NCBI GenBank assembly: GCA_902522415.1
Contig: CABYVI010000003.1
Coordinates: forward strand, 5,092-69,091
DNA length: 64,000 nt
DNA from: an uncultured SAR116 cluster alpha proteobacterium
GTDB taxonomy: Bacteria > Pseudomonadota > Alphaproteobacteria > Puniceispirillales > GCA-002684695
Reading direction: 5' to 3'
The notes under the pieces were generated by a model. The model saw only the letters and a list, made by a program, of their open reading frames with translations, searched no databases and had not been told where the DNA came from. Numbering within the stretch: the first letter of the stretch is position 1; every line of letters starts with the position of its first letter. A program made the translations under genes and the position numbers. Of this stretch, positions 4,221 through 30,163 are shown piece by piece.

Positions 4221-4541
4221 ATGGAAAATTTTATCACACCAGGCTTAGATCCAAAAACTTCTTTTGAAATAAGTTCGAATAAGACTAAAAAATTAAATGC
4301 AGACACTACAAGCTTAAATGAAGCAGCAGAGAGATTTGAGGCTTTATTTTTATCTCAAATGCTCAAATCAGCGAGAGCTGCAAAATTATCAGAAGATATA
4401 ATGGGCAACAATGCAACAGATACTTACTACGCAATGATGGATAATGAATTGGCAGAAAAATTATCAAAGGCAGGTAATTTTGGGATTGCAGAAGCTCTTA
4501 TCAGACAATTTGGTGGAAATGTAGAGGACAAAGATAAGTAA
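4221..4541 (+). CDS. flgJ: FlgJ-like rod-binding protein (rod-binding domain only, no muramidase domain)
   Basis: 106 aa; AAERFEALFLSQMLKSAR rod-binding motif; lies between flgI and flgK; stop overlaps the flgK ATG (TAATG). Confidence 0.7.
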   Translation: MENFITPGLDPKTSFEISSNKTKKLNADTTSLNEAAERFEALFLSQMLKSARAAKLSEDIMGNNATDTYYAMMDNELAEKLSKAGNFGIAEALIRQFGGNVEDKDK

Positions 4542-12024: not shown

Positions 12025-13527
12025 ATGACTTCCATCAATAGTGACCAAATGTCTGCAATGGTTCTCGCGAGCCTTAATAAGTCTAATGCAACTATGCAAG
12101 AATCTATGCAAAGGTTATCTACAGGTAAAAGAATTAACCATGCAGGTGACGATGCTGCTGGTCTGTCTATCTCAGCAAAACTCAGAGCGCAGGTTGATAG
12201 TTTAAATGCAGCAATTAAAAATTCATCAGATGCATTGGCAATGGTGAGTACGATTGAAGGTGCACTCGTTGAAACTACGACTATACTCCAAAGAATGAGA
12301 CAATTATCTGTTCAGTCTTCCTCTGATACCAACACAGGAAATGACAGAACTTATCTTCAAGACGAAGTAAATCAATTAATTACTGAAATTAATAGAATTT
12401 CTACTAATACAGAATTTAACTCAACAAAACTTTTAGACGGAACTTTTACTGATAAAAATATTCAAATAGGAACAGCATCTAATCAAGTTTTAAGACTAGG
12501 TGTAAGTGCTACAGATTCTACAAAATTAGGAGCATATCAACTAGATAGTGTGGATGAGAGTATTGCTCCAGAAGATACTCATGCATCTGCTAAAACTGTT
12601 TTAAATGCTTTGTATGATGCCACAGCAGATTACGTTGTTAAAGGTACTTTTGGCACGTTTACAGCTTCAGTTGATGCTGGAGCTGATGCAAGAGATGTTG
12701 CTTCATCTTTTAATTTAATAGGAGGGAATACAGGCGTTAACGCGACAGCACTTACTCGTGCGAAAATGACCGTTTCTGCAGCAGCAACATTCAGTTTTAC
12801 ATTTGAGGGTAAAAGTACAACAACTTCTCAAATAACAGCTACTGTAACTTCTGCGACTGACTTGACTGCAATAAAAGATGCTATTAATGCAGTATCGGGT
12901 TCTACAGGTATTTCAGCTGCTTTGACATCTGATAAATCTGGGGTAGAAATTACACAAGCAGAGGGATACGATATTATTATCGGTGATGTATCAACTGGTT
13001 CAACTGACGCTAACTTACTAGTTACGGCCATGGATATGGATGGAAACCTTGATACAGGAAATACGAGAACATTAGATGGTGACGGAACAACTGGTGACTC
13101 AACAGCGATTGTTGGTACAGTTCGCCTTTCAAGTCAAAACGCTTATACGGTTTCGCCAGGTCATGCGAATAATCACTTTTCTGCTGCTACTACAGAATTG
13201 ACTGCATCACATAGTACAATTTCAGCAGTTTCTCTTACAACAAAGGAAGGTGCGACAAAAGCTATGTCAGTTATTGATGGTGCTTTGTTAATGATATCAG
13301 GTATTAGATCAAATATGGGTTCAGCTAACAATAGACTACAATCTACTATCGATAATCTAAGTAATATTGCAGTGAACGCTCAAAAATCACTTTCAACAAT
13401 AGAAGATGCTAACTTTGCTGAAGAAACTGCAAAACTTACAAAAGCACAAATACTTGCGAAAGCAGCTACATCTATGCTTGCTCAAGCGAATAAAGCAAAA
13501 GAAACAATGCTTGCATTGCTGCAATAA
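12025..13527 (+). CDS. fliC: Flagellin (500 aa)
   Basis: RLSTGKRINHAGDDAAGLSIS N-terminus, NRLQSTIDNL...AQANKAKETMLALLQ C-terminus; central flagellin-IN-like motif DLTAIKDAINAVSGSTGISAAL. Confidence 0.95.
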   Translation: MTSINSDQMSAMVLASLNKSNATMQESMQRLSTGKRINHAGDDAAGLSISAKLRAQVDSLNAAIKNSSDALAMVSTIEGALVETTTILQRMRQLSVQSSSDTNTGNDRTYLQDEVNQLITEINRISTNTEFNSTKLLDGTFTDKNIQIGTASNQVLRLGVSATDSTKLGAYQLDSVDESIAPEDTHASAKTVLNALYDATADYVVKGTFGTFTASVDAGADARDVASSFNLIGGNTGVNATALTRAKMTVSAAATFSFTFEGKSTTTSQITATVTSATDLTAIKDAINAVSGSTGISAALTSDKSGVEITQAEGYDIIIGDVSTGSTDANLLVTAMDMDGNLDTGNTRTLDGDGTTGDSTAIVGTVRLSSQNAYTVSPGHANNHFSAATTELTASHSTISAVSLTTKEGATKAMSVIDGALLMISGIRSNMGSANNRLQSTIDNLSNIAVNAQKSLSTIEDANFAEETAKLTKAQILAKAATSMLAQANKAKETMLALLQ

Positions 13528-14334: not shown

Positions 14335-14360
14335 TAAACATTTTTACTATATGCCGTTCA
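14335..14360 (+). promoter_or_regulatory. Sigma-28-like promoter of flagellin 2 (TAAA-N14-GCCGTTCA)
   Basis: TAAACATTTTT...GCCGTTCA, same architecture as 11935-11960. Confidence 0.5.
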
Positions 14361-14370
14361 TTTACTTGTA

Positions 14371-14434
14371 CGGAGGTGGTCAGCGAAAACCTTCTCCGCG
14401 TTTAAATTTAATTAACTCGGAAAGGAGACAAAAA
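14371..14434 (+). promoter_or_regulatory. Flagellin 2 leader: hairpin with GGTCAGCGAAAA loop and anti-SD arm
   Basis: CGGAGGT-GGTCAGCGAAAA-CCTTCTCCG. The 3' arm CCTTCTCCG is also complementary to the RBS region CGGAAAGGAG at 14418-14427. Confidence 0.5.
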
Positions 14435-15952
14435 ATGGTCTCAGTGAATACTAATATTGCGTCAGTTGACGCTAGAAACACATTAATGGGTAATAATGTA
14501 ACGATGGAAAAAGCATTCGAAAGACTTTCAAGTGGAAAGAGAATTAACAGCTCAAGTGATGATGCTGCGGGTCTTCAAATTGCAAATAGCCTAACATCTC
14601 AAATTAATGGTCTAAAAATGGCAGCAAAAAATGCTGGTGATGGTATTTCATTAGTAAATACAGTTGATGGAGCTTTAAGCGAAGCAACTGACATTTTACA
14701 AAGAATGCGTGAACTTGCTGTTCAATCTTCTTCAGATACAAATGCTGGACAAGATAGAGTTTTTATCCAAGAAGAAATAAACGCACTTAATACAGAACTT
14801 AATAGAATTTCATCTACCACTCAATTTAATGGGGTGAACGTTCTTGATGGCACATTCGGTGATGTATCACTTCAGGTAGGTTATGATCCAAGCCAAACTG
14901 TTAATATGAGTGTTACTTCTTCAGACTCTGCAACATTAGGTGCATACCAGGATACATCAACAGTCGAAACATTGGCCGTAGTTGATACATATGCATTAGC
15001 AACCGCAGGTTTAACGACAACTATTGCTGACGCAGGTGATTACACAGTTTCAGGTTTTTTTGGTTCTGATACAGCATATATCGCAGCTGAGGCAGGGGCA
15101 AGAGACACAGCTGCAGCTTTCAACTTAATTGCAGGTAATACTGGCATTACAGCAACTGCAGAAACCAGAGCAAGACTTACTGTAAGTGCTGCCGCAACAT
15201 TAACTTTTGACCTTTATGGCAAAAGTTCAACTAAGTCTTCAGTGACAGCAGTTATTTCTGACACATCTGATTTATCAAACTTGAAGGATGCCATTAACGC
15301 AGTCAGTGGATCCACTGGGATTTCCGCAACTCTTACATCTGATAAAGCAGGCGTCAATATAGTTAATCCAGAGGGTTATACGATATTTTTTGCTGATGTG
15401 ACAGCTGCTGGCGGTACTGATGCAGATCTACAGGTTGCAAATTTAACTGTCGACGCTGCTGGTGCTGAAACAACAGCTAACCAAGTTGCAATGAAAGGTG
15501 ATGCAGCTACTGATGATAGTACATATGTATTAGGTCAAGTTACATTGTCTTCAGATAAAGCATTTGCTTTAAGTTCTGGAAATGCTGCAAACCATTTTGC
15601 AACAGATACTTCAGTTCAAACTAGTGCGTTGAGCCAACTAGGCGATATTAACCTTAAAAATATCCATGGTGCTCAAAAAGCTTTAGCGATAATTGATAAA
15701 GCCATTAATATGATCGATACAACACGTTCAACAATGGGTGCTTTAAATAATCGTCTTGAAAGTACTATTAACAATCTGAATAATATTCAGGTAAAAACGG
15801 AAGCGTCTCTTTCCAGAGTAATGGATGCTGATTATGCAGAAGAGACAACTTCCTTATCTAAATCTCAAGTCTTAACTCAGGCAGCTACTGCTATGCTAGC
15901 GCAAGCAAACCAAGCTCCTCAAGGAGTATTAAGATTACTTCAGGCAGGATAA
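14435..15952 (+). CDS. fliC: Flagellin (505 aa; true start MVSVNTN, not the ORF-track ATG at 14351)
   Basis: AAAGGAGA RBS 7 nt before ATG 14435; RLSSGKRINSSSDDAAGLQIA ... AQANQAPQGVLRLLQ. Confidence 0.93.
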   Translation: MVSVNTNIASVDARNTLMGNNVTMEKAFERLSSGKRINSSSDDAAGLQIANSLTSQINGLKMAAKNAGDGISLVNTVDGALSEATDILQRMRELAVQSSSDTNAGQDRVFIQEEINALNTELNRISSTTQFNGVNVLDGTFGDVSLQVGYDPSQTVNMSVTSSDSATLGAYQDTSTVETLAVVDTYALATAGLTTTIADAGDYTVSGFFGSDTAYIAAEAGARDTAAAFNLIAGNTGITATAETRARLTVSAAATLTFDLYGKSSTKSSVTAVISDTSDLSNLKDAINAVSGSTGISATLTSDKAGVNIVNPEGYTIFFADVTAAGGTDADLQVANLTVDAAGAETTANQVAMKGDAATDDSTYVLGQVTLSSDKAFALSSGNAANHFATDTSVQTSALSQLGDINLKNIHGAQKALAIIDKAINMIDTTRSTMGALNNRLESTINNLNNIQVKTEASLSRVMDADYAEETTSLSKSQVLTQAATAMLAQANQAPQGVLRLLQAG

Positions 15953-16048: not shown

Positions 16049-16084
16049 CTCAAGATGAAAGTCTTGAACAACAAGGAGATAAAT

Positions 16085-17587
16085 ATGACCTCAATAAATA
16101 GTGACTTCATGTCGCAATTGGCTTTAAGAAGCCTCGGACAATCGTCCAATACAATGACCCAAGCAATGGAGCGTTTATCAACAGGAAAAAGAATTAATTC
16201 TGCTGCTGATGATGCTGCTGGACTTGGTATTGCTACTAAGCTAAGAGCACAAGTAAATAGTTTAGAGGCTGCTGGAAGGAATGCTTCTGACGCTTTAGCA
16301 CTTATCGGTACAATTGATGGTGCATTAGAAGAGTCAGGTGAAATTCTTCAAAGAATGCGTGAATTGGCAGTTCAATCTGCATCAGATACAAATACTGGTA
16401 CAGATAGAACTTTCATTCAAGATGAAATAAATCAACTCTCTCAAGAGTTAAACAGAATTTCTACAGCAACTGAGTTTAACAATGTGAAATTGCTTGACGG
16501 TACATACACTGATAAAGCAATTCAAATTGGTACAGGTGCAAACCAAGTATTCAGATTGGGAGTTTCTGCGACAGATGCTTCAACACTAGGTGCGTATCAA
16601 TTATCTTCAACAACAGAATCTATGGATCCAGCTGCTGAAGATACTCACGCATCTGCAATTACAGCATTTGCAGCATTATTTCATGCAGACGCAGATTATA
16701 CAGTTAAGGGTAGCTTTGGAACTGCAACTGCTTCTGTAGCTGCTGGTGCTGATGCTCGTGATGTGGCTAGAACATTCAATTTGCTCTCAGGTACAACAGG
16801 TATTAATGCAACTGTCACAACCAAAGCACAGCTTAAAGTTACTGCTGCCGAGACTTTTAGTTTTACACTTCAGGGTAAAAGTTCAGATAAATCTACAGTT
16901 AATGCAACTATAACTAGTATAAGTGATTTGACAGCTTTGAAAGACGCTGTAAATGCTGTTTCAGGACAAACTGGAATTGTTGCTTCATTAACTGAAGACT
17001 TATCAGGAGTTAATCTTACACAAGAAGAAGGTTACAATATTGTTGTAGGTGACGCGACTGCAGCTTCTGGAGCGATGACAGTCCAAGAAATGAAATCAGA
17101 TGGAACTGTAACAGGTTCAGCAAGAACATTAGACGCAGATGCAACAGCTGCAGACTCTACAGCAGTTGTAGGGCAAGTCACTTTGTCTAGCCATAAGGCC
17201 TTCACTGTAACTTCTGGAAATGCTGCTAACCATTTTGCTACTGATACAGCCGCACAAAACTCAAGTTTATCTACAGTAGGCAGCCTTAGCCTTAAAACTC
17301 AAGCTGGTGCAACATCTGCTATTGCAGTTCTTGACGGAGCAATGGCTCAAATTTCTGAAATCCGAGCAGAAATGGGTGCAGCTGAAAACAGACTAGAGTC
17401 TACAGTTGATAACATCAGTAACGTTGCTGTAAATGTTCAAAGATCTCTATCTTCAGTTGAAGATGCGAATTTTGCTGCTGAGACATCCCAGTTAACTAAG
17501 TCTCAGATACTTCAGCAAGCAGCTACTTCAATGCTTGCACAAGCAAATAAAGCAAAGCAAACAATGCTTGTACTACTTCAAGGTTAA
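16085..17587 (+). CDS. fliC: Flagellin (500 aa; start MTSINSD)
   Basis: AAGGAGA RBS before ATG 16085; close paralogue of flagellin 1 throughout, including the central domain. Confidence 0.93.
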   Translation: MTSINSDFMSQLALRSLGQSSNTMTQAMERLSTGKRINSAADDAAGLGIATKLRAQVNSLEAAGRNASDALALIGTIDGALEESGEILQRMRELAVQSASDTNTGTDRTFIQDEINQLSQELNRISTATEFNNVKLLDGTYTDKAIQIGTGANQVFRLGVSATDASTLGAYQLSSTTESMDPAAEDTHASAITAFAALFHADADYTVKGSFGTATASVAAGADARDVARTFNLLSGTTGINATVTTKAQLKVTAAETFSFTLQGKSSDKSTVNATITSISDLTALKDAVNAVSGQTGIVASLTEDLSGVNLTQEEGYNIVVGDATAASGAMTVQEMKSDGTVTGSARTLDADATAADSTAVVGQVTLSSHKAFTVTSGNAANHFATDTAAQNSSLSTVGSLSLKTQAGATSAIAVLDGAMAQISEIRAEMGAAENRLESTVDNISNVAVNVQRSLSSVEDANFAAETSQLTKSQILQQAATSMLAQANKAKQTMLVLLQG

Positions 17588-17658: not shown

Positions 17659-17674
17659 TGGCATGGTATTTGCT
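17659..17674 (+). promoter_or_regulatory. Sigma-54 promoter of the 802-aa flagellin
   Basis: TGGCAT-GGTAT-TTGCT, 40 nt upstream of ATG 17714. Confidence 0.7.
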
Positions 17675-17713: not shown

Positions 17714-20122
17714 ATGAGTATTTTAACAAATTTAGCGGCTTTAAAATCGCTGTATCACATAAATCAGAATGAAGGTGAATTCTCTACTTCAGTAGAAAGA
17801 GTGTCTTCTGGTAAAAGAGTAAATAACGCAGGCGATGATGCTGCAGGCGCATCAATCATCAATAGAATGACATCTCAGGTACAGGGTATGAGCGTTGCAA
17901 TAAGAAATGCTGGAGATGCTATTTCTATGGCTCAAGTAGCTGAAGGCGCACTCGATGAAACAACAGAAATTTTACACAGACTGAGAGAAATAGCTGTTCA
18001 GTCTGCTAATGGAACTTACAGCGGCGCGAATAGAGTTGCACTAAACGCCGAAGTTGTTGCATTAAAAACAGAGTTATTAAGAATCGCTGAATCTACAAAA
18101 TTTAATGATGTAAAATTATTAAATGGGCAATTTCAAGATACTACATTTGCTATTGGTTATGATGAAAGTCCCGGTCATACACACTCATTAAGTATTGAGT
18201 CTGTAAAGCCAGATGACCTTGGTATGTGGACAATTACAACCGAACAGGAAAATACTGCCACTCTTAAAACAAGTGGAATGGGAAATTATGGAGAAGCTGC
18301 AAATATAGACACTGCAGCTGATCATTTATTTGAAACAGGTGATATTATTACTTATGAACAGGGACCAGCTGCTACAAGTATTCCAGTTCCAGGTCTAGTA
18401 GACGGGAAAAGTTATAAAGTGACAGTTGTTGACTCTGATTCATTTACTCTTACACATCTTGATGGATCAAAGGTTAAATATGGCGCAATCTCAAATTTTG
18501 GCACACCATCAAATGCTAAATTTCATTTACAAAGTATCTCTAATGCACCAACAGTAGGCTTGTCCAAAGGTTCTTACGCAGCCACTGGGGGAACTGATCA
18601 ATCAGCACCAGCATCAGAGGTTTTAAAAACAGAAGATGTTATGGTCCACGGACATGTTGGTTCATCTGAAGTACAGTTAAGAACTGGAATGACAGCTCTT
18701 GAAATTGCTAATGCAGTATCAAATATGGATTCACTTACCGGTGTTCGTGCTTCAGCAGTAACAAATGCTCGAATAACAGTATCACCAAGCGATAATACTG
18801 ATGATAAGCATGTGATTGCATTTGATTTGCAGGGTATGAATACAACTACACCAGTAAAAATTTCAGCAACCATAGGATTTGGTACAGGTGACGAAGTTCA
18901 TTCAGCAGACCTCTCTGATCTAAGAGATAAAATTAATGGTTTCACAGGCACAACAGGAATTTATGCAAAACTTTCATCAGACAAAAGCTATATTGATATA
19001 AAATCACCAGATGGATATGATGTTGTAATTGACAATGTGGATATGCCAACTGACACCGGCACAACGTTAACCCAAGCACTTGTTAACGCGAGTGGAGCAA
19101 ATACGAGTGATACAATTACCTCAGCATTAGCTCATGGATTTCAAGTAGGTGACATGATTAAGCTAACGGATGTCCATGGTGAAACAGGACTTGTTGGAAT
19201 AGATATGGAAACAACCTATTTTGTCAAAACTGCTCCAACATCTACAACCTTTACTTTAGCAACAGGTTCGCCAGATGGAACAACTGTTGATATTACAACA
19301 ACCAACAACGGTCATTTAGAATTTACTAAATTAGAAAAAACACTTAACCTTCAGACACTTGACAGAGACCTTAATGTAAAAGGTGGCAAAGTAAAGTTAA
19401 TGGATAAAGACATTGAATTACAAGGCTCTGGAGTTGGTGCTGTTATGACATCAGTAGCGTCAAGTGCATCAAATGCAAATATTACCTGCAGCAATGACCA
19501 TAGGTTGCAAGTTGGAGATGTTGTAAAATATACTGTAGGAAGTGTAGTTATTGCTGGATTGACAGATGGTGAATTCTACAAAGTTAAGGCTACATCATCT
19601 GATACAGTTTTTACATTAGAGAATTTAGATGGAACCGATCCTACTTATGGTGGCTCTGGAACTGGTGGCACATTTACTAAAGTAGTATCAAATGAAAATT
19701 CATTGCGACTAACAGGTGAAGTTCAATTTGAATCTGCTTATACATTTACTGTTGTTCCAGCAGTTCAGGACTCTTTATTCAGAGCAGCACCACCTGCAGC
19801 AAACTTAAATAAAGTTTCAGATCTTGATGTTTTAACAGTTGAAAAGTCACATAAATTTCTTACAGCTCTTGATGGAGCTATTAAAAGAATTGACGCAGAA
19901 CGTGGTGACCTTGGTGCGACAATGAATAGAATGCAACATACAATTGATAATTTATCAAATGTAATTGTTGGGACTAAATCAGCACGTGGCAGAATTGAAG
20001 ATGCAGACATGGCTGCAGAAACTGCTAATCTAGCAAAAAATCAAATTCTCCAGCAAGCAGCAACCGCAATGCTTGGTCAAGCAAACCAATCAATGCAAAC
20101 AATTCTTACACTTCTAAGATAA
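17714..20122 (+). CDS. fliC: Large flagellin (802 aa) with three HGF-x-x-GD-type modules in the variable region
   Basis: RVSSGKRVNNAGDDAAGASII N-terminus, DLGATMNRMQHTIDNL...GQANQSMQTILTLLR C-terminus; flagellin-IN-like motifs; modules at about 18300-18532, 19108-19330 and 19465-19686. Confidence 0.9.
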   Translation: MSILTNLAALKSLYHINQNEGEFSTSVERVSSGKRVNNAGDDAAGASIINRMTSQVQGMSVAIRNAGDAISMAQVAEGALDETTEILHRLREIAVQSANGTYSGANRVALNAEVVALKTELLRIAESTKFNDVKLLNGQFQDTTFAIGYDESPGHTHSLSIESVKPDDLGMWTITTEQENTATLKTSGMGNYGEAANIDTAADHLFETGDIITYEQGPAATSIPVPGLVDGKSYKVTVVDSDSFTLTHLDGSKVKYGAISNFGTPSNAKFHLQSISNAPTVGLSKGSYAATGGTDQSAPASEVLKTEDVMVHGHVGSSEVQLRTGMTALEIANAVSNMDSLTGVRASAVTNARITVSPSDNTDDKHVIAFDLQGMNTTTPVKISATIGFGTGDEVHSADLSDLRDKINGFTGTTGIYAKLSSDKSYIDIKSPDGYDVVIDNVDMPTDTGTTLTQALVNASGANTSDTITSALAHGFQVGDMIKLTDVHGETGLVGIDMETTYFVKTAPTSTTFTLATGSPDGTTVDITTTNNGHLEFTKLEKTLNLQTLDRDLNVKGGKVKLMDKDIELQGSGVGAVMTSVASSASNANITCSNDHRLQVGDVVKYTVGSVVIAGLTDGEFYKVKATSSDTVFTLENLDGTDPTYGGSGTGGTFTKVVSNENSLRLTGEVQFESAYTFTVVPAVQDSLFRAAPPAANLNKVSDLDVLTVEKSHKFLTALDGAIKRIDAERGDLGATMNRMQHTIDNLSNVIVGTKSARGRIEDADMAAETANLAKNQILQQAATAMLGQANQSMQTILTLLR

Positions 20123-20184
20123 CAAGTAATTTTAATTTTAGTTCAGAGCCTTTTTGAGGTTTGAATAGTATAAAGGCTAAGTGA

Positions 20185-21624
20185 ATGGAAAATAATTTTG
20201 TTGTTAATAAATTAAAAAATGACAATAACTTAATTTCTTTTCACAATCAGGCCGATATATACAATAACAAAGGTCTTGACTTTTTTCAAAATAATGATTT
20301 TGGGAATGCACTAATCTGCTTTTTCCAAGCTTTGACCCATGATAAGAATTATGCTCATGCATATTCCAATATAGGTAATATTCTCATTCAAAAAGGTGAA
20401 TTTGAAGAAGCTATTAGTATGTATCAAAAAGCAATAAATATTGATAATCAGAATAGCTTATATCATTTCAATCTCGGAATAGCTTATTCAAATGTTAATA
20501 ATAATAAAGCATCTGCTAAAGAATATAAAAGAAGCTTAAAATTAGATCCAGGTAACTTAAAAGCTTATAAATTTCTCGGAAATTGTTACATCAAATTAAA
20601 AGATTTCAAAAAAGCTATCGATACCTACCGAAAATGGTCAGAATTAGATCCCCAAAACCCAGAACCAAATTTTATTCTCGGGCAAATACATGTGAGAAAT
20701 GGACGCTTTAATTTAGGATGGAAATTATACGAATACGGATTGAAGAATAATATAAGAAAACCTTTAAGTGGCTTTTATCACGAAAAAAAGGAAATATGGG
20801 ATGGAAAACCATTTAACGGGTCACTTCTCGTTTACGGTGAACAAGGTCTTGGAGATCAAATAAACTTTGGAACTTTACTTTTTGAACTCCTAAAAATTCA
20901 AAAGAACGTTTGTGTAAAAGTAAATAAAAAATTAGTTGATTTATTTACTTGTACTTTTCCAACAATGAGAGTTTTCAGCGAGGAAGAAGAAATTCCGCAA
21001 AATGTTTACGATAAATATATTGCTCTTGGAAGCCTAAATAAATTCTTAAAAAAACATACAAATGATTATCTTAATTCAAAATTTTATCCATTAAAAGTAC
21101 ATGGCAATAGATACCTCGAGATTAATAATTTTTTTTCTAAACTAAATGGTTTTAATATAGGAATATCCTGGCACTCTTTTTCTAGTAAAACAGGCAAAGA
21201 CAGATGCTTGAAAACACATGAATTAGCTAAAATTGTTAGTGTTCAAAATATTAATTTTTTCAATATCCAGTATGGAAATGTACATAATCAGGTCAAAGAA
21301 GTTAATTTTACTTCAGGTAAAGAGATTTTGAGAGTGCCTTTCGTTGATTTGACTAATGATATTTCATCAGTAGCTGACATTATTAATAATTGTGACTTAA
21401 TAATTTCTGTAGACAATACAACAGCACATTTAGCTGCTGCTTTAGGTAAACCTGTTTGGTTATTATTGCCTTTTAATGCTGACTTTAGATGGATGGAAGA
21501 TATTACAACATCTCTCTGGTATAAAAATGTCACTTTAATTAGACAACAAAAAGAGCATGATTGGTCTAATGAAATTGAAATAATTTACAACTCACTAAAT
21601 AGCTCAAATATAGACAAAAAATAA
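20185..21624 (+). CDS. TPR-repeat protein fused to a GT9-like (heptosyltransferase-fold) glycosyltransferase domain; FlmG-like architecture, candidate flagellin glycosyltransferase
   Basis: N-terminal TPRs. C-terminus has EQGLGDQINF, GISWHS, DLIISVDNTTAHLAAALGKPVWLLLP, FRWMED..SLWY. Location next to the flagellins. Confidence 0.7.
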   Translation: MENNFVVNKLKNDNNLISFHNQADIYNNKGLDFFQNNDFGNALICFFQALTHDKNYAHAYSNIGNILIQKGEFEEAISMYQKAINIDNQNSLYHFNLGIAYSNVNNNKASAKEYKRSLKLDPGNLKAYKFLGNCYIKLKDFKKAIDTYRKWSELDPQNPEPNFILGQIHVRNGRFNLGWKLYEYGLKNNIRKPLSGFYHEKKEIWDGKPFNGSLLVYGEQGLGDQINFGTLLFELLKIQKNVCVKVNKKLVDLFTCTFPTMRVFSEEEEIPQNVYDKYIALGSLNKFLKKHTNDYLNSKFYPLKVHGNRYLEINNFFSKLNGFNIGISWHSFSSKTGKDRCLKTHELAKIVSVQNINFFNIQYGNVHNQVKEVNFTSGKEILRVPFVDLTNDISSVADIINNCDLIISVDNTTAHLAAALGKPVWLLLPFNADFRWMEDITTSLWYKNVTLIRQQKEHDWSNEIEIIYNSLNSSNIDKK

Positions 21625-21640: not shown

Positions 21641-23833
21641 ATGCACGATATTATTCTATCTCTTGATCAATTAATGACCAGTTCCATTCAAGCAAATAAA
21701 TATGGAAATAAAACTCAAGCATTAAAATATTTTAAAAAATTTGAGGATAAAAAAAATGAAGCCATAGAATTGGCTAAACAGGCTGCTAAAGATGGTAATG
21801 TCAAATTAGTTGATGAAATACTTGGATGCTTAAACAAGTTAAAAAATTATTACAAAACTAATTTACCTGTTGAAACAAAAGAAGAAAATAAACATAGATT
21901 AGAAGAAATATTTGCAATCTATAATCAAGGAAATTTTGAAAAAACCATTTCAATTATTAAGAGCCAACTAGAAAAAAATAATCAAAATCCCAATTTATAT
22001 AACTTATTAGCTTTAAGTTTTTTTAATATCGGAAAGTTAGATCACTCAATTAAATCTTTCCATGAAGGATTAAATAGTTTTCCAAATAATTTTCATTTAA
22101 ATAATAATATTAGTGTTGTTTATAAAGAAATAAAAGATTTTGATAAAGCTTTACTCTATGGTTTAAGAGCTTTTAAGATTGATCCCAATTCTGATGAAGC
22201 ATCTACCAATTTAGGTAATATTTTCTTCGAAACTGAGAACTACGATAAATCTTTATTGTACTTTAAAAAGTCAATTTCACTTAACCCACATAATTCAACC
22301 ACAATTTACAACTTCGCAGTCTGCAACTTAAAATTAAATAATTACAAACTTGCTGATGAAGCTATTAATCTAGCTTTAAGACATCAACCAGATAATCATG
22401 AATTTTTGAATGTTAAAGGACAAATTTTAAGAGAAATGGGAAGACATGATGCATCTGAAGAGTTTTTTTACAAGGCTTTGGATTTAAATTCTAACTCAGT
22501 TTTGACCTTGAATAATTTAGGAATTTTATTACAAGACAAAGTCAAATATAAAGAATCATTAGTTATATTCAAAAAAGCATTAAGTATAGAACCTAATAAT
22601 ATTAATTTTCTATGTAATATTGCCAATTCTTATTTACACCTTGGAAGTAATAAAAAAGCAATTGAATACCTTGATAAATGTTTAATAGTTAACCCAAATT
22701 TTGATAAGGCTTTTTCATTAAAAGGGATAATTTATGCTCATTTAGGACAGAAAGAAAAGTCAGTAAAGAGTTTTAAAAATGCAATTAAAATTAATAACTT
22801 TAACGCCGATGCATATAGGCAATTATCAAGACTTCAAAATTTTAAGACAGGTGACCCTCTCATAAAACAAATGGAACAAGTTTATGATAATAAGTTTTTA
22901 ATACCAGAAGAGAGAGCAATAATGTCTTTTGCATTAGGAAAAGGTTATGAGGATCTTAAAGAATATTCAAAAAGTTTTAATTTTTATAAAAATGGTAATG
23001 ATTTTTATAAAAACAAATACAGACCTCAAATCATACCAGAAGAAGTTTTTTTTAAAAATTTAGCTAAAACAAGTATTAATATTGATACGAATAAAAAGTT
23101 ACTAAAATATAATTTAAAACCTATTTTTGTTTTAGGCTTACCAAGATCTGGAACATCTCTTATTGAACAGATACTATCATCTCATTCTAAAGTAGAAGGG
23201 ATGGGAGAATTAAATTCACTTAGTAAATTTATTGAAAGTAATCTAATTACATATAAAGAAGGGTTTTCTCCAATTATTAAAAAATTTAATAAGGAAGAAC
23301 AAATAAATTTATCCAATTTTTATATGGATTCAGTTAAAACTATTGATAGCAGCGCAAAATATTTTGTTGATAAAATGCCACATAATTTTAGATGGATAAG
23401 TTATATTTTAAATTCTTACTTTTCAGCAAAAGTAATTCTGGTTGAAAGAAATCCCATGGACAATTGTTTTTCCTTATTCAAAATGCTATTTTCTTCAAGA
23501 CAACAACATTCATATTCATTTGATCTTGAAGTACTAGGAAAATATTATTTGATATATAAGGACTTAGTTAACCATTGGAAAGAAATGTATAAAAATAATA
23601 TCTATACTTGCAAATATGAAAAACTTATTTCAGATCCAGAGACTGAAATAAAAAAATTATTAGATTTCTGTAACATTAAATGGGAAGATAAAATAATGAG
23701 ATTTTATGAGACAAAAAGGTCAGTTAATACTGCTAGTCATACTCAAGTAAGACAAAAATTGTATTCTAGCTCTATTGGTTCATGGAAAAACTATGAAAAT
23801 GAATTACAGCCTCTGAAGAAAATTATTAACTAA
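21641..23833 (+). CDS. TPR-repeat protein fused to a C-terminal sulfotransferase domain
   Basis: About 10 TPRs, then a PAPS-binding 5'-PSB-like motif GLPRSGTSLIEQILSSH and a sulfotransferase-type C-terminus (VERNPMDNCFS ... YEKLISDPETEIKKLLDFC). Confidence 0.7.
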   Translation: MHDIILSLDQLMTSSIQANKYGNKTQALKYFKKFEDKKNEAIELAKQAAKDGNVKLVDEILGCLNKLKNYYKTNLPVETKEENKHRLEEIFAIYNQGNFEKTISIIKSQLEKNNQNPNLYNLLALSFFNIGKLDHSIKSFHEGLNSFPNNFHLNNNISVVYKEIKDFDKALLYGLRAFKIDPNSDEASTNLGNIFFETENYDKSLLYFKKSISLNPHNSTTIYNFAVCNLKLNNYKLADEAINLALRHQPDNHEFLNVKGQILREMGRHDASEEFFYKALDLNSNSVLTLNNLGILLQDKVKYKESLVIFKKALSIEPNNINFLCNIANSYLHLGSNKKAIEYLDKCLIVNPNFDKAFSLKGIIYAHLGQKEKSVKSFKNAIKINNFNADAYRQLSRLQNFKTGDPLIKQMEQVYDNKFLIPEERAIMSFALGKGYEDLKEYSKSFNFYKNGNDFYKNKYRPQIIPEEVFFKNLAKTSINIDTNKKLLKYNLKPIFVLGLPRSGTSLIEQILSSHSKVEGMGELNSLSKFIESNLITYKEGFSPIIKKFNKEEQINLSNFYMDSVKTIDSSAKYFVDKMPHNFRWISYILNSYFSAKVILVERNPMDNCFSLFKMLFSSRQQHSYSFDLEVLGKYYLIYKDLVNHWKEMYKNNIYTCKYEKLISDPETEIKKLLDFCNIKWEDKIMRFYETKRSVNTASHTQVRQKLYSSSIGSWKNYENELQPLKKIIN

Positions 23834-23834: not shown

Positions 23835-25391
23835 TCAAAAAAGTTTATTTTTACAAATTTCAATTAATTTCAAAATTTCCTTGTCCCATGACATTGTCTT
23901 TCTTAAAATATAGGTTTTTGGATACCAAAGACTATTAGTACTATTATCAAACCATCTCCAGTCACTTACTTCAGGGATTAGTGCCACAGTATCTTTTTTA
24001 AGTAAGCTTGATAAATGAAGTGTTGAATTATCTATTGAGATAACCATATCGCAAGCTAAAATTTTTTCAGCTAGTCCTTCAATATTATTTTTATTATCAG
24101 TGTTATCTTCAACAAAAAGACATTTTTTAATTTTTTTAGAAACGCGATCAATTTCCGTTTTAAAATCGCCATATTGAAGGTTAATAAAATTTGCATCTAA
24201 ATTTGTAAAGAGGGGGGCAAATTGTTTTAATTTAATATTTCTCTTTGGTCCAAGCTGTTTATTATTAGTATGCCAAGAAATGCCAATAGTGACTTTATTA
24301 TTATTAATTAATAATTTTAATTTATTTCTCTTACTTTTGTTCTCGGTAAAATTAAAATTAGTTGCTCTAGCAAAATCACTTTCTCTTTTTAGAAAATATT
24401 TACAAAGAGATCCAATAGGAAGATAAGATTCGTATTTTTTTTCTATTGCCTCATCAAATGTTGTTATAAATTCATGTTTTATGTCAGATATACGAAATAA
24501 ATTCTTTAGTCTTTCATCCAGTAAAAGTCCTAATCTATACTTTTTTGAATCTAAATTTTTCAAAAGCGATGAAAACATTAATTCATCACCTAAACCCTGC
24601 TCACCTACAATTAAAATTGAGTTAAAATTTAAATTTGGCTCCCATTTTGGAAGTATGCTAAGAGCTTTTTTTTCTACTCTAAGTTTCCTTTCCCCAAGTT
24701 CAATACCTATTTCGTATCTGTCCCAACCAGCATCAAAACATTTTTCTTTTAAATTTATTATTCCAAGGTTATATTTTGCTTTTTTAGAAGACAACCTGCT
24801 TAATATTTTCTTGGATTTTTCTAAAAATCCTAGTTGATACAAATTTGATGCTATATTTAATTCTACATCATGTCTCTTTTCATTTAAATTTGAAATTTTA
24901 GTGTATTCTGACAAAGATTTTTCAAAATCTCCTTTTAAAAAAAAGATTTTACCAAAAAGGTCAATAACTTTATAAGAATTAGGTTCGATTTTCTTAGCTT
25001 TCTTGGCATAAATCAATGAGTTTTCAAATTCTTCATTTTCATAGAATATCTTTGATATTTCTATTATTGTTTTTACACAAAGAGGTCTAATTTTATGCGA
25101 ATGGAGATAGTGTTTCATTGCAATTTTTGGTTTTTTTGCATCTCTAAATAAATTTGCTAAATTAAAATAATTATCAAATTCATTTGGAAATAAATCACAT
25201 AAAATTTGGAAGTATTTTATAGCTTGAGAAAATTTTTTCTGTTTAGCCAATGAAACAGCAAGCAAATTACATAACCACGGATCAGTAAACCCCTTACTTA
25301 AAAGATAAGTGGCATCTTGTTCAACGTTGTAATAATTACCAGAGTTATAAGTGTTTAAAATTTTATTTTTAAAGTTTTGGCTTACAAGCAT
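23835..25391 (-). CDS. Second TPR plus GT9-like glycosyltransferase fusion, immediately downstream of fliD
   Basis: TPRs; EQGLGDELMF, GISWHT, DMVISIDNSTLHLSSLL, DWRWFDNSTNSLWYP; paralogue of 20185-21624. Confidence 0.7.
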   Translation of the reverse strand: MLVSQNFKNKILNTYNSGNYYNVEQDATYLLSKGFTDPWLCNLLAVSLAKQKKFSQAIKYFQILCDLFPNEFDNYFNLANLFRDAKKPKIAMKHYLHSHKIRPLCVKTIIEISKIFYENEEFENSLIYAKKAKKIEPNSYKVIDLFGKIFFLKGDFEKSLSEYTKISNLNEKRHDVELNIASNLYQLGFLEKSKKILSRLSSKKAKYNLGIINLKEKCFDAGWDRYEIGIELGERKLRVEKKALSILPKWEPNLNFNSILIVGEQGLGDELMFSSLLKNLDSKKYRLGLLLDERLKNLFRISDIKHEFITTFDEAIEKKYESYLPIGSLCKYFLKRESDFARATNFNFTENKSKRNKLKLLINNNKVTIGISWHTNNKQLGPKRNIKLKQFAPLFTNLDANFINLQYGDFKTEIDRVSKKIKKCLFVEDNTDNKNNIEGLAEKILACDMVISIDNSTLHLSSLLKKDTVALIPEVSDWRWFDNSTNSLWYPKTYILRKTMSWDKEILKLIEICKNKLF

Positions 25392-25393: not shown

Positions 25394-27631
25394 TTAGTCA
25401 CTATTCTGAGCTTCCATGAAGTTATCTAGGTATTCACCAGTAGATTTAAAGCTATTTACAACAGATTCCATTGCTCCATACTGTTCTTTATATCTATCAC
25501 GCAATTTTTCAATATCTTTATCTAATTCAATCAAGTCTTCATTGTATTCATTTAATTCTTGGTTAAGTGTGTTTGTTCTTGTAGACAATGATCCTGAGTT
25601 TGAAAGTATAGAGTTGAGATATTTTGTAATAGTTGAAACATAACTATTACCTATTGAAATATATGCATCTGAACCTGGAGCAACAACTCCAAGACTAAGT
25701 CCAAAAGCATCACCAGATAAAGTTCTAAATCCCGTTGATGTTTGCTCAATTGAAGATCCTGCAAGTGTGGCACCAGTAACATCTCCAGTCCCTGAAACAA
25801 CTGTACCGCCCTCAATTCCAAGAAAATTATTCAATCCGCTGTCAATTGAATTTATAACAATGTTACTTTCTGAACCATATTTTTTAGAAGTAATCACATA
25901 CTTTCCATTTAAGTAAGACACTGTTACACCCTCACCTTTAACAGCCAGAATGTTATCTGCATTTATTGCAGTTTCAAGTGCATTTGCTAAAGATGAAGTT
26001 GTAGAAAATGGACCGCCAGTGACGTTTATTGTATTTGATGTTACTCCATTTAATGTTATTGAAAGACTTTGGCTGCCATTTGATGGTGTATAGTTTGAAG
26101 CTGTAATATCTGTAGATGGGGAGCTACCAGTGAGTGTTGCTTGAGTTCCAATATCAAAAAAGTAATATCCAGGTTTATAATTTGAGCCTGTTAAAAATGG
26201 TGATATAAAAGATGAAGTGCTATGCAGTCTATCTGAAAAAAGTGCTGTTAAAGCTTGAGGGTCTTCTTTAAATGCTAAGTCAAACATTCTTTCATTAAGT
26301 TTAAGCCCGCCAGTTTTAGTAGTTGAAACTCCTAAATTAGCCAAATAAATAGGTTTTTCCCCGTAACCAAAAATTGGTTCAGTAGTTAATTTTCCTAACC
26401 TATCAGAGATTGCACGAATTGATGAATCACCGGCAAGAGCTCCCTTTTTTCCACCGTTCAAACCTCTTTCAGTAAGTTCACTTAGTTGACTTGCAAGATT
26501 ATTAACTTCTTCTACTAAACTCTCTAAAGCTGAGAGCACTTTATCTTTTGAAGTGGAAACTGATACAATAGCAGGAGAGGAGGTAGTATTAACTAATGAT
26601 AGGGTTGCTCCATCTATAACATCAACAATTTCATTATTGCTTCTTGAAATTGAAACACCATCAACTGTAAATGAAGCATTTTGTGCGTTTGCTGTCTCTG
26701 TGTTTGTTCTTAAAAAAGTATCATTTGAACTTCCATTACCTCCACCATATGTAATTGTATTCCCATTGCTATCATTTAAAGTAAATGACGTGGTAGATGG
26801 AACAGATGCAATTTTATACGATGTGAGAGAAGAAAGTCCATTTAAAGCTGTACCACCAGCTAAGTACTGAACAGTATCACCAACTTTTAAGCCATGTGCA
26901 GATGTTGAATTTAATACCGCTCCTGATGAACTTGATATAGCCGAAGTATTTGATGTATATGTAGTATGTTCTATAGATTTCAAACCCGAGTTTGAACCCT
27001 CAGTTATATCTATTTTAAATGCATTTGATAAACCAGTATTAGATCTTAGAACTAAAGCATAATCTGAAGTATCTTTTTTTACAATAGATGCAGTTACTCC
27101 AAGATTACCAAGATTTATTTTATCCTTAATATCAGTTAACGAATAAGCCGAGTTAGAAATACTCACTGTTTTTTGAGAATAAGACGTATCAGCTGTAAAT
27201 ACCCCATTGGACCACGTACCCTTTTGAAAAACAATATCACCATCACCAACAAGAGCACTACTTGAAGCAAAACCATCAAAAACAAGGGTCTGTGACGATG
27301 CGAGTTTAGAAACATTTATTGAGCTTGTAATCTCTTTAACAGAAGCAGGATCTGTAACGGTTAATGCAACGGAAGTACTAGTACTGGAACCCTCAAAAAC
27401 ATTTGTTCCTTCCATAGCATCAATTATTTTTGTTGATTCTGATATAGATTTTTTCAATTCAGCGATTGCAGAAATAGAAATTTCATTTTTCTCTATTTTA
27501 TCATTAATTTTTTTCTCTTTTGGAGCTCTTTCTGCTGTAATGAGGTTTTTAATTAATTCAGTCGTATTTAATCCACTTCCGACGTTTAATGCACTAAAGA
27601 CATCAGTTTCTGACATTTTGTAATTATCCAA
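25394..27631 (-). CDS. fliD: Filament cap protein FliD (HAP2), enlarged (745 aa), with one HGF-x-x-GD-type module
   Basis: N-terminus GSGLNTTELIKNLITAERAPKEKKIN, C-terminus LIELDKDIEKLRDRYKEQYGAMESVV; module SAHGLKVGDTVQYLAGGTALNGL... at about 26709-26935. Confidence 0.9.
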   Translation of the reverse strand: MDNYKMSETDVFSALNVGSGLNTTELIKNLITAERAPKEKKINDKIEKNEISISAIAELKKSISESTKIIDAMEGTNVFEGSSTSTSVALTVTDPASVKEITSSINVSKLASSQTLVFDGFASSSALVGDGDIVFQKGTWSNGVFTADTSYSQKTVSISNSAYSLTDIKDKINLGNLGVTASIVKKDTSDYALVLRSNTGLSNAFKIDITEGSNSGLKSIEHTTYTSNTSAISSSSGAVLNSTSAHGLKVGDTVQYLAGGTALNGLSSLTSYKIASVPSTTSFTLNDSNGNTITYGGGNGSSNDTFLRTNTETANAQNASFTVDGVSISRSNNEIVDVIDGATLSLVNTTSSPAIVSVSTSKDKVLSALESLVEEVNNLASQLSELTERGLNGGKKGALAGDSSIRAISDRLGKLTTEPIFGYGEKPIYLANLGVSTTKTGGLKLNERMFDLAFKEDPQALTALFSDRLHSTSSFISPFLTGSNYKPGYYFFDIGTQATLTGSSPSTDITASNYTPSNGSQSLSITLNGVTSNTINVTGGPFSTTSSLANALETAINADNILAVKGEGVTVSYLNGKYVITSKKYGSESNIVINSIDSGLNNFLGIEGGTVVSGTGDVTGATLAGSSIEQTSTGFRTLSGDAFGLSLGVVAPGSDAYISIGNSYVSTITKYLNSILSNSGSLSTRTNTLNQELNEYNEDLIELDKDIEKLRDRYKEQYGAMESVVNSFKSTGEYLDNFMEAQNSD

Positions 27632-27731: not shown

Positions 27732-28367
27732 ATGTTTAATCTATCGCCTCAATATAATTTGCTTTTAGATCAATATAGTTACATGGCAGAAAACGGATAC
27801 CATAGAACTGATGGTCAATTTGTAAAAAATGTATATTCAGATGCTGAGCCTTTGAAGTTTTCAGAGAGCATAAAGGAAATTGTTAAGTGTTTTAATTCAA
27901 AAAATGCTTTAGATTATGGTTCAGGTGGAACTAATTTAAACACTAAAATACTAAAAGAAGATATTAAGTTTATTGACTTCATAGGTCTAAAAAAAATTTA
28001 TTCTTATGAGCCTGCTAGAAAAAAAGGCAACCCTAAAAAATGTGATTTGGTTTTATGCTTTGATGTTCTTGAACATATCTTTATTAATGATATTCCGTGG
28101 GTTTTAAAAGAATTATTTGCAAATGCAAAACAATGTGTAATCATAAATGTTGCTTGCTATAAAGCTGCTGCACTTTTACCTAATGGAGAAAATGCACACA
28201 TAACAGTAAGACCTCCCCATTGGTGGTTAGGACAAATCGAGTGTATAAGCACATTGTATCCTGAAGTTTATTGGGCACTTTTTACTTCTCAAGGTCATCA
28301 GAATTTTGATTTTCTTGGTGTGCATAGAATGAAAGACAAAATAGATAGCAAAAAATTTGTCCAGTAA
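27732..28367 (+). CDS. Putative class I SAM-dependent methyltransferase (211 aa)
   Basis: Motif I-like LDYGSGGT, and CDLVLCFDVLEHI; sits in the flagellin-modification neighbourhood. Confidence 0.55.
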   Translation: MFNLSPQYNLLLDQYSYMAENGYHRTDGQFVKNVYSDAEPLKFSESIKEIVKCFNSKNALDYGSGGTNLNTKILKEDIKFIDFIGLKKIYSYEPARKKGNPKKCDLVLCFDVLEHIFINDIPWVLKELFANAKQCVIINVACYKAAALLPNGENAHITVRPPHWWLGQIECISTLYPEVYWALFTSQGHQNFDFLGVHRMKDKIDSKKFVQ

Positions 28368-28543: not shown

Positions 28544-30163
28544 ATGTTAATAGATAGAAAACTATCAACAGCTGAAAAACTCAGAAAAATCGGAAATTTT
28601 GAACAAGCAATTATTATTTATGAAGAAATTCTCTCTAAATTCCCATTAAATAAACGTGCTCAATTAGGGAAATCTTCTTGCATAAAATATGCACCTCAAA
28701 TGGAGTTGGATTTTGTCATAAACTTATTTGATAAAAAATTATATAATGAAGCTGAGAGCGAAATTCAGAATTTGATAGTTAAATATAAAAATGATGAGAA
28801 TTTATATAATATTTATGGTGCTATCTTATCTAGACTACAAATATTTGACAAAGCAAAAGAGAAATATCAAAAAGCATTAGAATTGAACCCTAGATTCCCT
28901 GAAGCTCTCAATAATCTTGCGGAATTAATGAACCAAACTAAAGAATTTAATGAAGCAAAGCAATTATGCGAAGAGGCCATAAAACTTAATAAGAATTATG
29001 CAGAGGCTTACAATAATTTAGGTAATTCATATCTAAACCTAGGATCTTACAAGGAAGCAAATACTTTTTATGAAAAATCTTTATTCCTTAACAATCCTAA
29101 CAAATATAGCGTTTTAAATAATTTAGGATTAGTGAATGCTTTTCTAAATAATTTTAAAGTTTCCAATAAATATTTAATTCAGGCAACTAATTTGATCCCA
29201 AAAGAAATTGAAGCAGTTAATACATTAGCTTCAATAGCAATTTATCAAGATAAAGCGGATTATAGTAATATTTCTGATCATTTAATAAAAAATTTAGATT
29301 TTTATGACACAAAAAGTAAAATCTTCATTTTAACTTACTTAAGCATCCTCTTTTATATTGAAGGTGAAATAGAGAAATCAAAAAATTATAACAAGAATCT
29401 AATAAATAGATTAAATGAATTCTTAGAAAACAGAAGAATTTTTGAACCTAAGGATTTAAATTTTGTAAAGGCTTATAGTTCTTTTTTGCGTTCTTTAAAT
29501 AAAATGGCTGCCCAAGAAAGCTTAACTAATAATTTATCAAATAAAAATATAATTTATCATTTAGGTGAGAGCCATTGCCTATCCTTTGCTCATAGAAACA
29601 TTCAAATCAATGATAAAAAATTTAGAATTAAACCTTTAATAACTGTAGGAGCTAAAGCCTGGCATCTCACAGACAAAAGACATAATAAGCAAAAACCTTT
29701 TTTCATTTCGCAATTGAAAAAGGTTCCTTACAATTCAAAGGTATTTATATCTATTGGCGAAATAGATACCAGAATTAGTGAAGGTATTATTACATTCCAT
29801 CAGAAATCAAAAAAAGATTTAAATGAAATAATTAAAGAAACTGTATATGGTTATGTGAGTTTTATTGAAAGCTTTTTAGAGAGTAAACAAATAGAAAAAT
29901 TCTATTTTAGTGTTCATGCCCCTTATCAAATTCGAGAAAATAAAGACTATAACTCTGAACTTGAACTGAGAAGAATAGAAGTTATCAAGACTTTCAATAA
30001 TTATTTAGAAAAATATACTAAAGAGTTTAATTCTAAATTTATAGACACCTTTAGCTTTACATGTAATGAAAAAGGCGAGTCCAACAAGAAATATATGATT
30101 GATCCAACACATCTTTCACCAAAAGCTCTACCAATCATTGAAACAAAGATTAATAATCTTTAG
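28544..30163 (+). CDS. TPR-repeat protein with an uncharacterised ~220-aa C-terminal domain
   Basis: N-terminal TPRs similar to the neighbouring TPR enzymes. I do not recognise the C-terminal half (HLGESHCLSF...ISIGEIDTR...). Confidence 0.6.
   Translation: MLIDRKLSTAEKLRKIGNFEQAIIIYEEILSKFPLNKRAQLGKSSCIKYAPQMELDFVINLFDKKLYNEAESEIQNLIVKYKNDENLYNIYGAILSRLQIFDKAKEKYQKALELNPRFPEALNNLAELMNQTKEFNEAKQLCEEAIKLNKNYAEAYNNLGNSYLNLGSYKEANTFYEKSLFLNNPNKYSVLNNLGLVNAFLNNFKVSNKYLIQATNLIPKEIEAVNTLASIAIYQDKADYSNISDHLIKNLDFYDTKSKIFILTYLSILFYIEGEIEKSKNYNKNLINRLNEFLENRRIFEPKDLNFVKAYSSFLRSLNKMAAQESLTNNLSNKNIIYHLGESHCLSFAHRNIQINDKKFRIKPLITVGAKAWHLTDKRHNKQKPFFISQLKKVPYNSKVFISIGEIDTRISEGIITFHQKSKKDLNEIIKETVYGYVSFIESFLESKQIEKFYFSVHAPYQIRENKDYNSELELRRIEVIKTFNNYLEKYTKEFNSKFIDTFSFTCNEKGESNKKYMIDPTHLSPKALPIIETKINNL

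Follow-up and report, generated by a model that had tools for sequence, protein, structure and literature searches.

A tetratricopeptide repeat sulfotransferase encoded in a SAR116 cluster flagellin locus: a candidate enzyme for flagellin sulfation

RESULTS

The TPR-sulfotransferase gene and its product

The subject of this study is a gene in the flagellin locus of an uncultured SAR116 cluster alphaproteobacterium, whose predicted product joins an arm of tetratricopeptide repeats (TPR) to a sulfotransferase (ST) domain and which we call the TPR-ST gene. The window, by which we mean the whole stretch of DNA that was analyzed, is 64,000 nucleotides long (GenBank assembly GCA_902522415.1, contig CABYVI010000003.1, positions 5,092 to 69,091 of the forward strand) and is contig C3 of the source genome, here G000, a 1.2-Mb assembly that is 61% complete. 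The gene and the parts of its product are as follows, with positions counted from the first letter of the window, residues in amino acids (aa), and TPST1 and TPST2 denoting the two tyrosylprotein sulfotransferases of animals.

21641..23833, + strand: TPR-ST gene (P0001), 730 aa (open reading frame call, Pfam and AlphaFold2 model)
21641..21895, + strand: N-terminal extension, aa 1-85, with three long helices (2-20, 24-50 and 54-74; together aa 2-74) in the AlphaFold2 model
21899..23068, + strand: TPR superhelix, aa 87-476, about 11 repeats (paired helices in the AlphaFold2 model; repeats read from the translation)
23099..23830, + strand: ST domain, aa 487-730, TPST-like, alpha/beta (PDB profile search and Foldseek)
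23135..23161, + strand: predicted 5'-phosphosulfate-binding loop GLPRSGTSL, aa 499-507, including R502 (motif scan; aligns with GVPRSGTTL of TPST1)
23207..23209, + strand: codon of E523, counterpart of the catalytic Glu99 of TPST2 (GMGEL aligned to CGEET)
23372..23374, + strand: codon of K578, counterpart of Lys158 of TPST2 (VDKMP aligned to CNKDP)
23447..23473, + strand: predicted 3'-phosphate-binding stretch R603...S611 (VERNPMDNCFS; aligns with MVRDGRASVHS of TPST1)

The gene is a single open reading frame that runs from an ATG at 21641 to a stop codon ending at 23833, with a ribosome-binding site, GAAGG, 8 nt 5' of the start. Its DNA contains 25% G+C versus 0.32 genome-wide, and because a low G+C content makes stop codons common, the open frame lies far beyond chance. 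Comparison with the ortholog of 95% identity shows the gene to be under purifying selection, with a dN/dS of 0.15 for the whole coding sequence and of 0.085 for the ST domain, where constraint is strongest.

The catalytic domain

The original prediction, made from the letters of the window alone, had placed a sulfotransferase-like region with the motif LPRSGTSL, read as binding the sulfate donor 3'-phosphoadenosine 5'-phosphosulfate (PAPS), at the C terminus, and both parts of this claim were borne out. The motif was recovered as GLPRSGTSL in the motif scan, and Pfam Sulfotransfer_3 (PF13469) matches aa 494-683 at 137.2 bits, above the curated cut-off of 27 (E 1.3e-39), by which the protein is classified as a member of Sulfotransfer_3; Sulfotransfer_1 matches as well (E 7.8e-17). 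A PDB profile search with the ST domain returned TPST1/2 first (E 1.5e-20) and the CurM sulfotransferase second. The AlphaFold2 model of the protein was built with 56 homologs in the alignment and has a mean predicted local distance difference test score of 90.3. A Foldseek search with the full-length model was dominated by TPR matches that left the catalytic domain unranked, and the search was therefore rerun with the ST domain alone, whereupon the top 13 matches were all TPST1/2, with query-normalized template modeling scores (TMq) of up to 0.78, followed by CurM, an olefin-synthase sulfotransferase, Stf9 and heparan 3-O-sulfotransferases.

In the model, the phosphosulfate loop is formed by a strand (493-499) followed by a helix (505-513), and a motif scan found the pattern G[ML]PRSG[TS][TS] in nearly all homologs. 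R502, E523, K578 and R603 are invariant across the 56 sequences of alignment A2, and the first three of them align with Arg78, Glu99 and Lys158 of TPST2, whose catalytic roles have been described (PMC10951654). The predicted PAPS-binding motifs and the predicted Arg/Glu/Lys catalytic triad are intact in the TPR-ST sequence.

These results bear on the idea that the protein works mainly without catalysis, chaperoning or regulating flagellin or the neighboring glycosyltransferases, its ST fold serving as a nucleotide sensor or scaffold. TPR proteins often chaperone secretion substrates, and the NCBIfam scan did give weak matches of the LcrH/SycD type, but the invariance of the PAPS-binding and catalytic residues in the 56 homologs, the strong constraint on the ST domain (dN/dS 0.085) and the frequent presence of genes for PAPS synthesis and for phosphatases of 3'-phosphoadenosine 5'-phosphate (PAP) next to family members make such a role very improbable.

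The N terminus and the TPR arm

Many Pfam TPR families match the stretch N-terminal to Sulfotransfer_3, and the whole model finds its best Foldseek matches in the TPR superhelices of OGT and SPINDLY, for example, 1w3b with a target-normalized template modeling score (TMt) of 0.64. Many of the repeats carry an N-[LIFV]-[GSA] motif, in which an Asn precedes the small residue of helix A, and which we take to be the same "asparagine ladder" as in OGT. In OGT and SPINDLY, the TPR superhelix feeds protein substrates to the catalytic domain. The N-terminal extension is specific to the clade of the window, as phmmer matched aa 1-85 to orthologs P0002-P0007 only and to no other family members. Inspection of the sequence by eye revealed neither a signal peptide nor a membrane segment, which would place the protein in the cytoplasm. 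PAPS also occurs there, and it is there that flagellin is modified ahead of its export.

The flagellin locus around the TPR-ST gene

The genes and promoter-like sites that surround the TPR-ST gene are listed here, where TPR-GT stands for a TPR protein with a glycosyltransferase domain.

12025-13527, 14351-15952 and 16055-17587, + strand: three further flagellin genes, candidate substrates (Pfam)
17659..17674, + strand: sigma-54 promoter-like site TGGCATGGTATTTGCT, 55 nt before the start codon of the 802-aa flagellin (pattern scan)
17714..20122, + strand: flagellin gene, 802 aa, 5' of the TPR-GT/TPR-ST pair (Pfam Flagellin_N and Flagellin_C)
20185..21624, + strand: tprGT, TPR plus GT9-like glycosyltransferase, 479 aa, FlmG-like architecture (Pfam TPR and Glyco_transf_9, weak, E 1.8e-5)
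23835..25391, - strand: second TPR plus GT9-like protein, 518 aa, paralog of 20185-21624
25394..27631, - strand: fliD (filament cap), 745 aa (Pfam FliD_N and FliD_C)
27669, - strand: sigma-54 promoter-like site of fliD, TGGCATTTTTTTTGCA (pattern scan)
27732-28367, + strand: methyltransferase-like protein, 211 aa (weak Methyltransf_23 match)
28544-30163, + strand: third TPR protein, 539 aa, with a 300-aa C-terminal domain (Pfam)

As had been predicted, the TPR-ST gene lies between two TPR glycosyltransferase genes, on the same strand as the first; both encode GT9-like proteins, which share 29% identity over 456 aligned columns (BLASTP, E 2e-44). The genes on the plus strand are tightly spaced, with 62 nt between the 802-aa flagellin gene and tprGT and 16 nt between the tprGT stop and the TPR-ST start. 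No sigma-54-type box was found within the 62-nt gap, no terminator-like site was predicted between 20122 and 23833, and strong predicted terminators follow the third flagellin gene, the methyltransferase-like gene and the third TPR gene. A sigma-28 promoter was also sought and rejected, the single weak match falling within the TPR-ST coding region but on the other strand, so that no usable site resulted; all boxes found were of the sigma-54 type. The simplest reading of this arrangement is that flagellin, TPR-GT and TPR-ST are probably expressed from a single sigma-54 transcript. The TPR-ST gene converges on the second TPR-GT gene, which directly follows fliD and is therefore probably part of the fliD operon.

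Sigma-54-like boxes of the form GG-N10-GC precede both the methyltransferase-like gene and the third TPR gene, and both genes probably belong to the modification island as well. The C-terminal domain of the third TPR protein has no match in Pfam, NCBIfam or PDB, and a homolog of this protein is encoded between flagellin genes in the congener G004. For the C-terminal domains of the neighboring TPR proteins, PDB sequence searches returned nothing usable and NCBIfam gave only generic TPR matches.

Several other features of the window deserve mention in their own right. The gap between flagellin and tprGT contains a 7-bp inverted repeat (AGCCTTT...AAAGGCT, 20147-20178) that is not terminator-like and whose 3' arm, judged by eye, overlaps the probable tprGT ribosome-binding site, where it might attenuate translation. 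Four more sigma-54 boxes of the form TGGCAT-N5-TTGC[AT] lie on the plus strand at 30173, 30414, 30537 and 30920, where that strand has no long open reading frame. A giant FlgK of 2026 aa is encoded at 4541-10621 (+ strand), with FlgK_D1 at aa 96-325, a Flagellin_IN motif in mid-protein and the rod C-terminal motif at its end; enlargement is also seen in the fourth flagellin (802 aa) and in FliD (745 aa). At the far end of the window (61417-64000, + strand), genes for a ThiF/E1-like protein (379 aa), a UQ_con E2-like protein (209 aa) and a Prok-JAB protein, the last of which runs off the window end, resemble a bacterial ubiquitin-like conjugation cassette.

Comparison within the genus

The contigs that carry TPR-ST orthologs at 95% and 58% identity keep the genes in the same order all the way from the flagellins to those for the sigma-54 activators. 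Among seven congeners, only G003 has an ortholog. In G007, exactly the TPR-ST gene is missing and just 7 nt lie between its two TPR-GT genes, and in G004 a second TPR-GT gene directly follows tprGT, so that the slot after tprGT is filled by different TPR-enzyme genes in different congeners. The locus can thus be viewed as an island of exchangeable TPR-enzyme genes, in which TPR-ST occupies a slot otherwise used by FlmG-like enzymes.

The relative G012 has five TPR-GT genes between its flagellin genes, together with two CMP-sugar cytidylyltransferase genes and an epimerase gene, a neighborhood that supports reading the GT9-like TPR proteins as putative flagellin glycosyltransferases for nonulosonic acids. 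G000 itself has two NeuB genes, and no Maf family member was found in G000 or its relatives. The TPR-ST protein would be a TPR enzyme of the flagellin-targeting type that carries a new catalytic module.

Recurrence beside flagellin genes and PAPS supply

Genes of this kind adjoin flagellin genes in other lineages as well. In G014, G023 and G029, three genomes that belong to a different family of this order, a TPR-Sulfotransfer_3 gene lies directly between the only flagellin gene and flgL, and a fourth genome of their genus, G008, has no ST gene at all and no APS (adenosine 5'-phosphosulfate) kinase. NeuB, GT9-like TPR-GT and Maf were all absent from these four genomes, which are 98-99% complete. 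When metagenomes were scanned with the enzymes of G014, G023 and G029 as seeds, the ST gene adjoined flagellin genes at 5 of 80 loci (median length, 4 kb). In the ST-domain tree, the flagellin-adjacent TPR-STs are spread over at least four distinct clades (that of the window and three others), and they stand in different local arrangements, with the caveat that deep nodes of this tree are weakly supported and the number of independent recruitments is therefore approximate. Across 31 related genomes, about 5 of 47 ST genes adjoin flagellin genes, where chance would give fewer than one by a rough estimate that ignores kinship. In the present analysis, the recurrence is confirmed for the order of G000 and for marine metagenomes.

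Genes for the synthesis and recycling of PAPS often lie close to these enzymes. APS kinase is present in six of the seven congeners, including the ortholog-bearing G003, and cysC, cysD or cysQ lies beside the TPR-ST gene at 12 of the 80 metagenome loci. Contig L135 has the order flagellin, TPR-ST, APS kinase. A non-flagellar cassette in G022 contains cysD, cysNC, cysQ (a cysQ-like PAP phosphatase) and a TPR-ST gene of 737 aa in a row (L107, G022:C1, 3990-10612). In G009, cysD and cysNC are flanked by giant flagellin genes, one encoding 981 aa and the other 1031 aa (L102, G009:C12, 9608-12459); this cysD encodes 314 aa (PAPS_reduct family) and this cysNC 633 aa (GTPase plus APS kinase), the latter being the only strong APS-kinase match in G009. 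No ST gene is linked to this G009 cluster, as the ST genes of G009 are on other contigs and the cluster contig ends in fliD.

As a separate observation, a 575-aa chloride channel open reading frame (Voltage_CLC plus CBS) adjoins fliD in L099 (4373-6097), and frames of about this length occupy the corresponding position in five further loci of two related families, L100 (15067-16794), L101 (3904-5643), L111 (6826-8541), L106 (6162-7922) and L109 (4116-5843).

DISCUSSION

A possible role in flagellin modification

Our analysis leads us to lean, by a modest degree, toward the interpretation that the TPR-ST protein is a TPR-guided, PAPS-dependent sulfotransferase that would act on flagellin before its export, a view suggested by the genomic context of the gene, by the domains of the protein and by analogy with known TPR enzymes. 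The sigma-54 promoter at 17659 would drive one transcript that encodes the 802-aa flagellin, the FlmG-like TPR-GT and TPR-ST, and the OGT-like TPR superhelix, perhaps together with the three-helix N terminus, would bind fresh flagellin ahead of export. The TPST-like domain would then move sulfate from PAPS to a flagellin hydroxyl by means of R502, E523 and K578, and the exported, sulfated flagellin would give the filament a negatively charged surface that could vary between strains.

A number of observations weigh against this interpretation. The family search yielded at least 586 ST-domain relatives in 185,579 species genomes, and when the 10-kb neighborhoods of the best 80 loci were scanned, flagellin, FliD or FliS was found near none of these 80 nearest ST loci (3 of which are from Pelagibacteraceae). 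Guilt by association with flagella across the whole family was consequently rejected, and the flagellar link appears to be specific to certain lineages and not a property of the family, which is large and mostly non-flagellar. Genomes of the order carry several ST paralogs, up to about seven, and a few have none. At least one non-flagellar paralog occurs in G000, where its neighbors are parAB and a probable glycosyltransferase gene that was named from its N-terminal sequence alone; the gene order there, mnmE-mnmG-rsmG-parA-parB ... holA-leuS (names from N-terminal sequences only), suggests an alphaproteobacterium. The TPR-ST gene is dispensable within the genus, as G007 and G004 illustrate, and no APS kinase was found in the 61% complete assembly of G000 itself. 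Flagellin binding by the TPR arm would be an analogy only, the repeats being generic, the weakly supported deep nodes make the count of recruitments approximate, and acidic-context tyrosines in flagellins do not track the enzyme, the G029 flagellin core having one Tyr and those of G029 and G014 no acidic Tyr.

The main rival to flagellin sulfation, which we regard as unlikely and nevertheless as a serious contender, is that the substrate is non-flagellar (another protein, a capsule or lipopolysaccharide sugar, or a small molecule) and that the flagellin island is a permissive, fast-changing insertion site. It would account for a family whose members are mostly non-flagellar and occur as several paralogs per genome. 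The window clade, with a support value of 1.0, has as its sister the non-flagellar paralogs of its own genus, including that of G000; the two group together with a support of 0.885 in the first ST-domain tree, which falls to 0.66 in the larger tree. The absence of the TPR-ST gene from congeners with an otherwise identical locus points the same way, and so would its low G+C content (0.25 versus 0.32 in the genome), but the non-flagellar G000 paralog on contig C6 is equally low at 0.246. For the same reason, composition is uninformative on a foreign origin of the gene, and an argument for such an origin from its low G+C content was rejected. A non-flagellar substrate also fits poorly with the tight packing of the TPR-ST gene in an apparent flagellin operon, with the TPR enzyme of flagellin-modifying type that follows tprGT in G004 (the one congener read that far) and with the recurrence of flagellin adjacency in at least four clades and in varied local arrangements.

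The original prediction had proposed sulfation of flagellar proteins or their glycans. What stands of it is the intact and conserved sulfotransferase, the architecture of flagellin-targeting type, the probable common transcript with a sigma-54 flagellin gene, the recurrent adjacency to flagellin genes and the linkage to PAPS-synthesis genes. The mostly non-flagellar character of the family tells against it, and the proposal is upheld in part.

Candidate acceptors of the sulfate group

If flagellin is sulfated, the acceptor in G000 is slightly more likely to be an O-linked sugar placed by the neighboring TPR-GTs, as favored by the flanking FlmG-like genes and the NeuB genes of this genome. It is possible that a Ser/Thr side chain in the flagellin variable domain serves instead, and a Tyr is less likely. 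A polypeptide acceptor is favored by the TPST-like domain and by the three carriers without recognizable flagellin glycosylation genes (G014, G023 and G029). Likeness to TPSTs does not in itself point to tyrosine, because acidic-context tyrosines in the flagellins fail to track the enzyme; their counts in the cores are alike in genomes that have it and genomes that lack it, the counts of all Tyr do not follow its presence either, and tyrosine was rejected as a conserved flagellin target on these grounds.

Flagellin sulfation could thus take a form in which the Ser/Thr (or Tyr) residues of the polypeptide are sulfated directly, with no glycan step, a variant of our favored interpretation that seems rather unlikely to us. 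The nearest solved relatives of the ST domain, by sequence and by fold, are indeed protein-tyrosine sulfotransferases, the flagellin cores contain 23-34% Ser plus Thr, and in G014, G023 and G029 the enzyme is encoded beside the sole flagellin gene in genomes where NeuB, GT9-like TPR-GT and Maf are lacking, although glycosyltransferases of other types may occur there. The flagellins give no acidic-tyrosine signal, the window gene itself is flanked by two FlmG-like glycosyltransferase genes in a genome with two NeuB genes, and Sulfotransfer_3 includes enzymes with non-protein substrates, with CurM, the olefin synthase ST and Stf9 as the next structural matches.

More specifically, and with still more reserve, we consider it a doubtful though attractive idea that the flagellin-adjacent TPR-STs form a recurrently recruited class that would esterify Ser/Thr hydroxyls of flagellin with sulfate without a glycan intermediate. 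If so, this would be the first sulfated bacterial flagellum as well as a dedicated bacterial Ser/Thr O-sulfotransferase of proteins, and a TPST-like active site would have been reused for aliphatic hydroxyls under the aim of an OGT-like TPR arm.

Novelty and implications

Known modifications of flagellin are glycosylation, lysine methylation and the phosphodiester-linked and sulfonated glycans of Clostridium difficile. The original prediction that sulfated bacterial flagellin had not been established agrees with our searches of the full-text literature, which found no report of it, of a flagellin-linked sulfotransferase or of an enzyme-placed flagellar sulfate ester. Flagellin sulfation, if shown, would surprise specialists, and the present locus is one of many of its type. 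It would add sulfation to the means by which filament surfaces are diversified, with possible effects on charge, hydration, recognition by phages and grazers, and stickiness in sea water. It would further imply that the FlmG-type design of TPR plus catalytic domain is a general and exchangeable targeting platform, and would give biochemists a bacterial sulfotransferase that is soluble and brings its own arm for protein targeting. The presence and absence of the gene among close relatives, together with PAPS genes beside flagellin in others, make the proposed flagellin sulfation testable by heterologous reconstitution.

Comparison with known systems

Sulfur-containing groups on motility filaments have precedents of other kinds. 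The type B flagellin of C. difficile carries a peptidylamido-glycan with a sulfur-oxyanion group, which the source terms sulfonated and not sulfated (PMC5207245). In Halobacterium salinarum, the archaellins bear a sulfated N-glycan that involves two sulfotransferases, a case that resembles our proposal in placing sulfate on a glycoprotein of a motility filament (PMC11980604, PMC6591318). The system differs in being archaeal, N-linked and built on a lipid carrier, its archaellum being unrelated to the bacterial flagellum, and no TPR fusion of its sulfotransferases is apparent from the abstract.

Among sulfotransferases that act on proteins, RaxST of Xanthomonas oryzae and the animal TPSTs offer the closest comparisons. 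RaxST has, to our knowledge, no TPR domain. It is like TPR-ST in being a bacterial, cytoplasmic, PAPS-dependent sulfotransferase, and its protein substrate is RaxX (PMC4646787, PMC4892823). RaxB both processes this small secreted peptide and exports it (bioRxiv 10.1101/442517), and neither a RaxX-type peptide gene nor a RaxB-type transporter gene was seen beside the TPR-ST gene. TPST1 and TPST2 (PDB 3AP1, 5WRI, 8W5Z; PMC10951654) share with TPR-ST the PRSGT[ST]L loop, the catalytic Arg/Glu/Lys and the Arg/Ser of the 3'-phosphate site; their targets are tyrosines of acidic peptides in the secretory pathway of animals, whereas TPR-ST has a 480-aa TPR arm and stands beside flagellins without a matching tyrosine pattern.

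The architecture of TPR-ST resembles that of the flagellin-modifying TPR enzymes. Maf-1 of Shewanella oneidensis modifies flagellin with the aid of a TPR domain that binds flagellin and is needed for its modification (bioRxiv 10.1101/2023.12.03.569772), and it differs from TPR-ST in that its TPR domain is C-terminal and its catalytic domain is MAF_flag10. FlmG, the flagellin O-glycosyltransferase of Caulobacter crescentus and Brevundimonas subvibrioides, shares with TPR-ST an N-terminal TPR domain, a C-terminal transferase, a cytoplasmic location and a place in the flagellar gene set, and its TPR domain likewise binds flagellin and is needed for its modification (PMC7591256). The transferase of FlmG is a GT-B domain that acts with pseudaminic or legionaminic acid, whereas TPR-ST has a PAPS-type sulfotransferase domain that would transfer sulfate. 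When the catalytic domain of FlmG was swapped in a chimera, a different sugar was placed on the same flagellin target (bioRxiv 10.1101/2022.03.25.485807). TPR-ST may thus work in the manner of the FlmG/Maf-1 class without being a member of it, since its catalytic domain is neither GT-B nor MAF_flag10.

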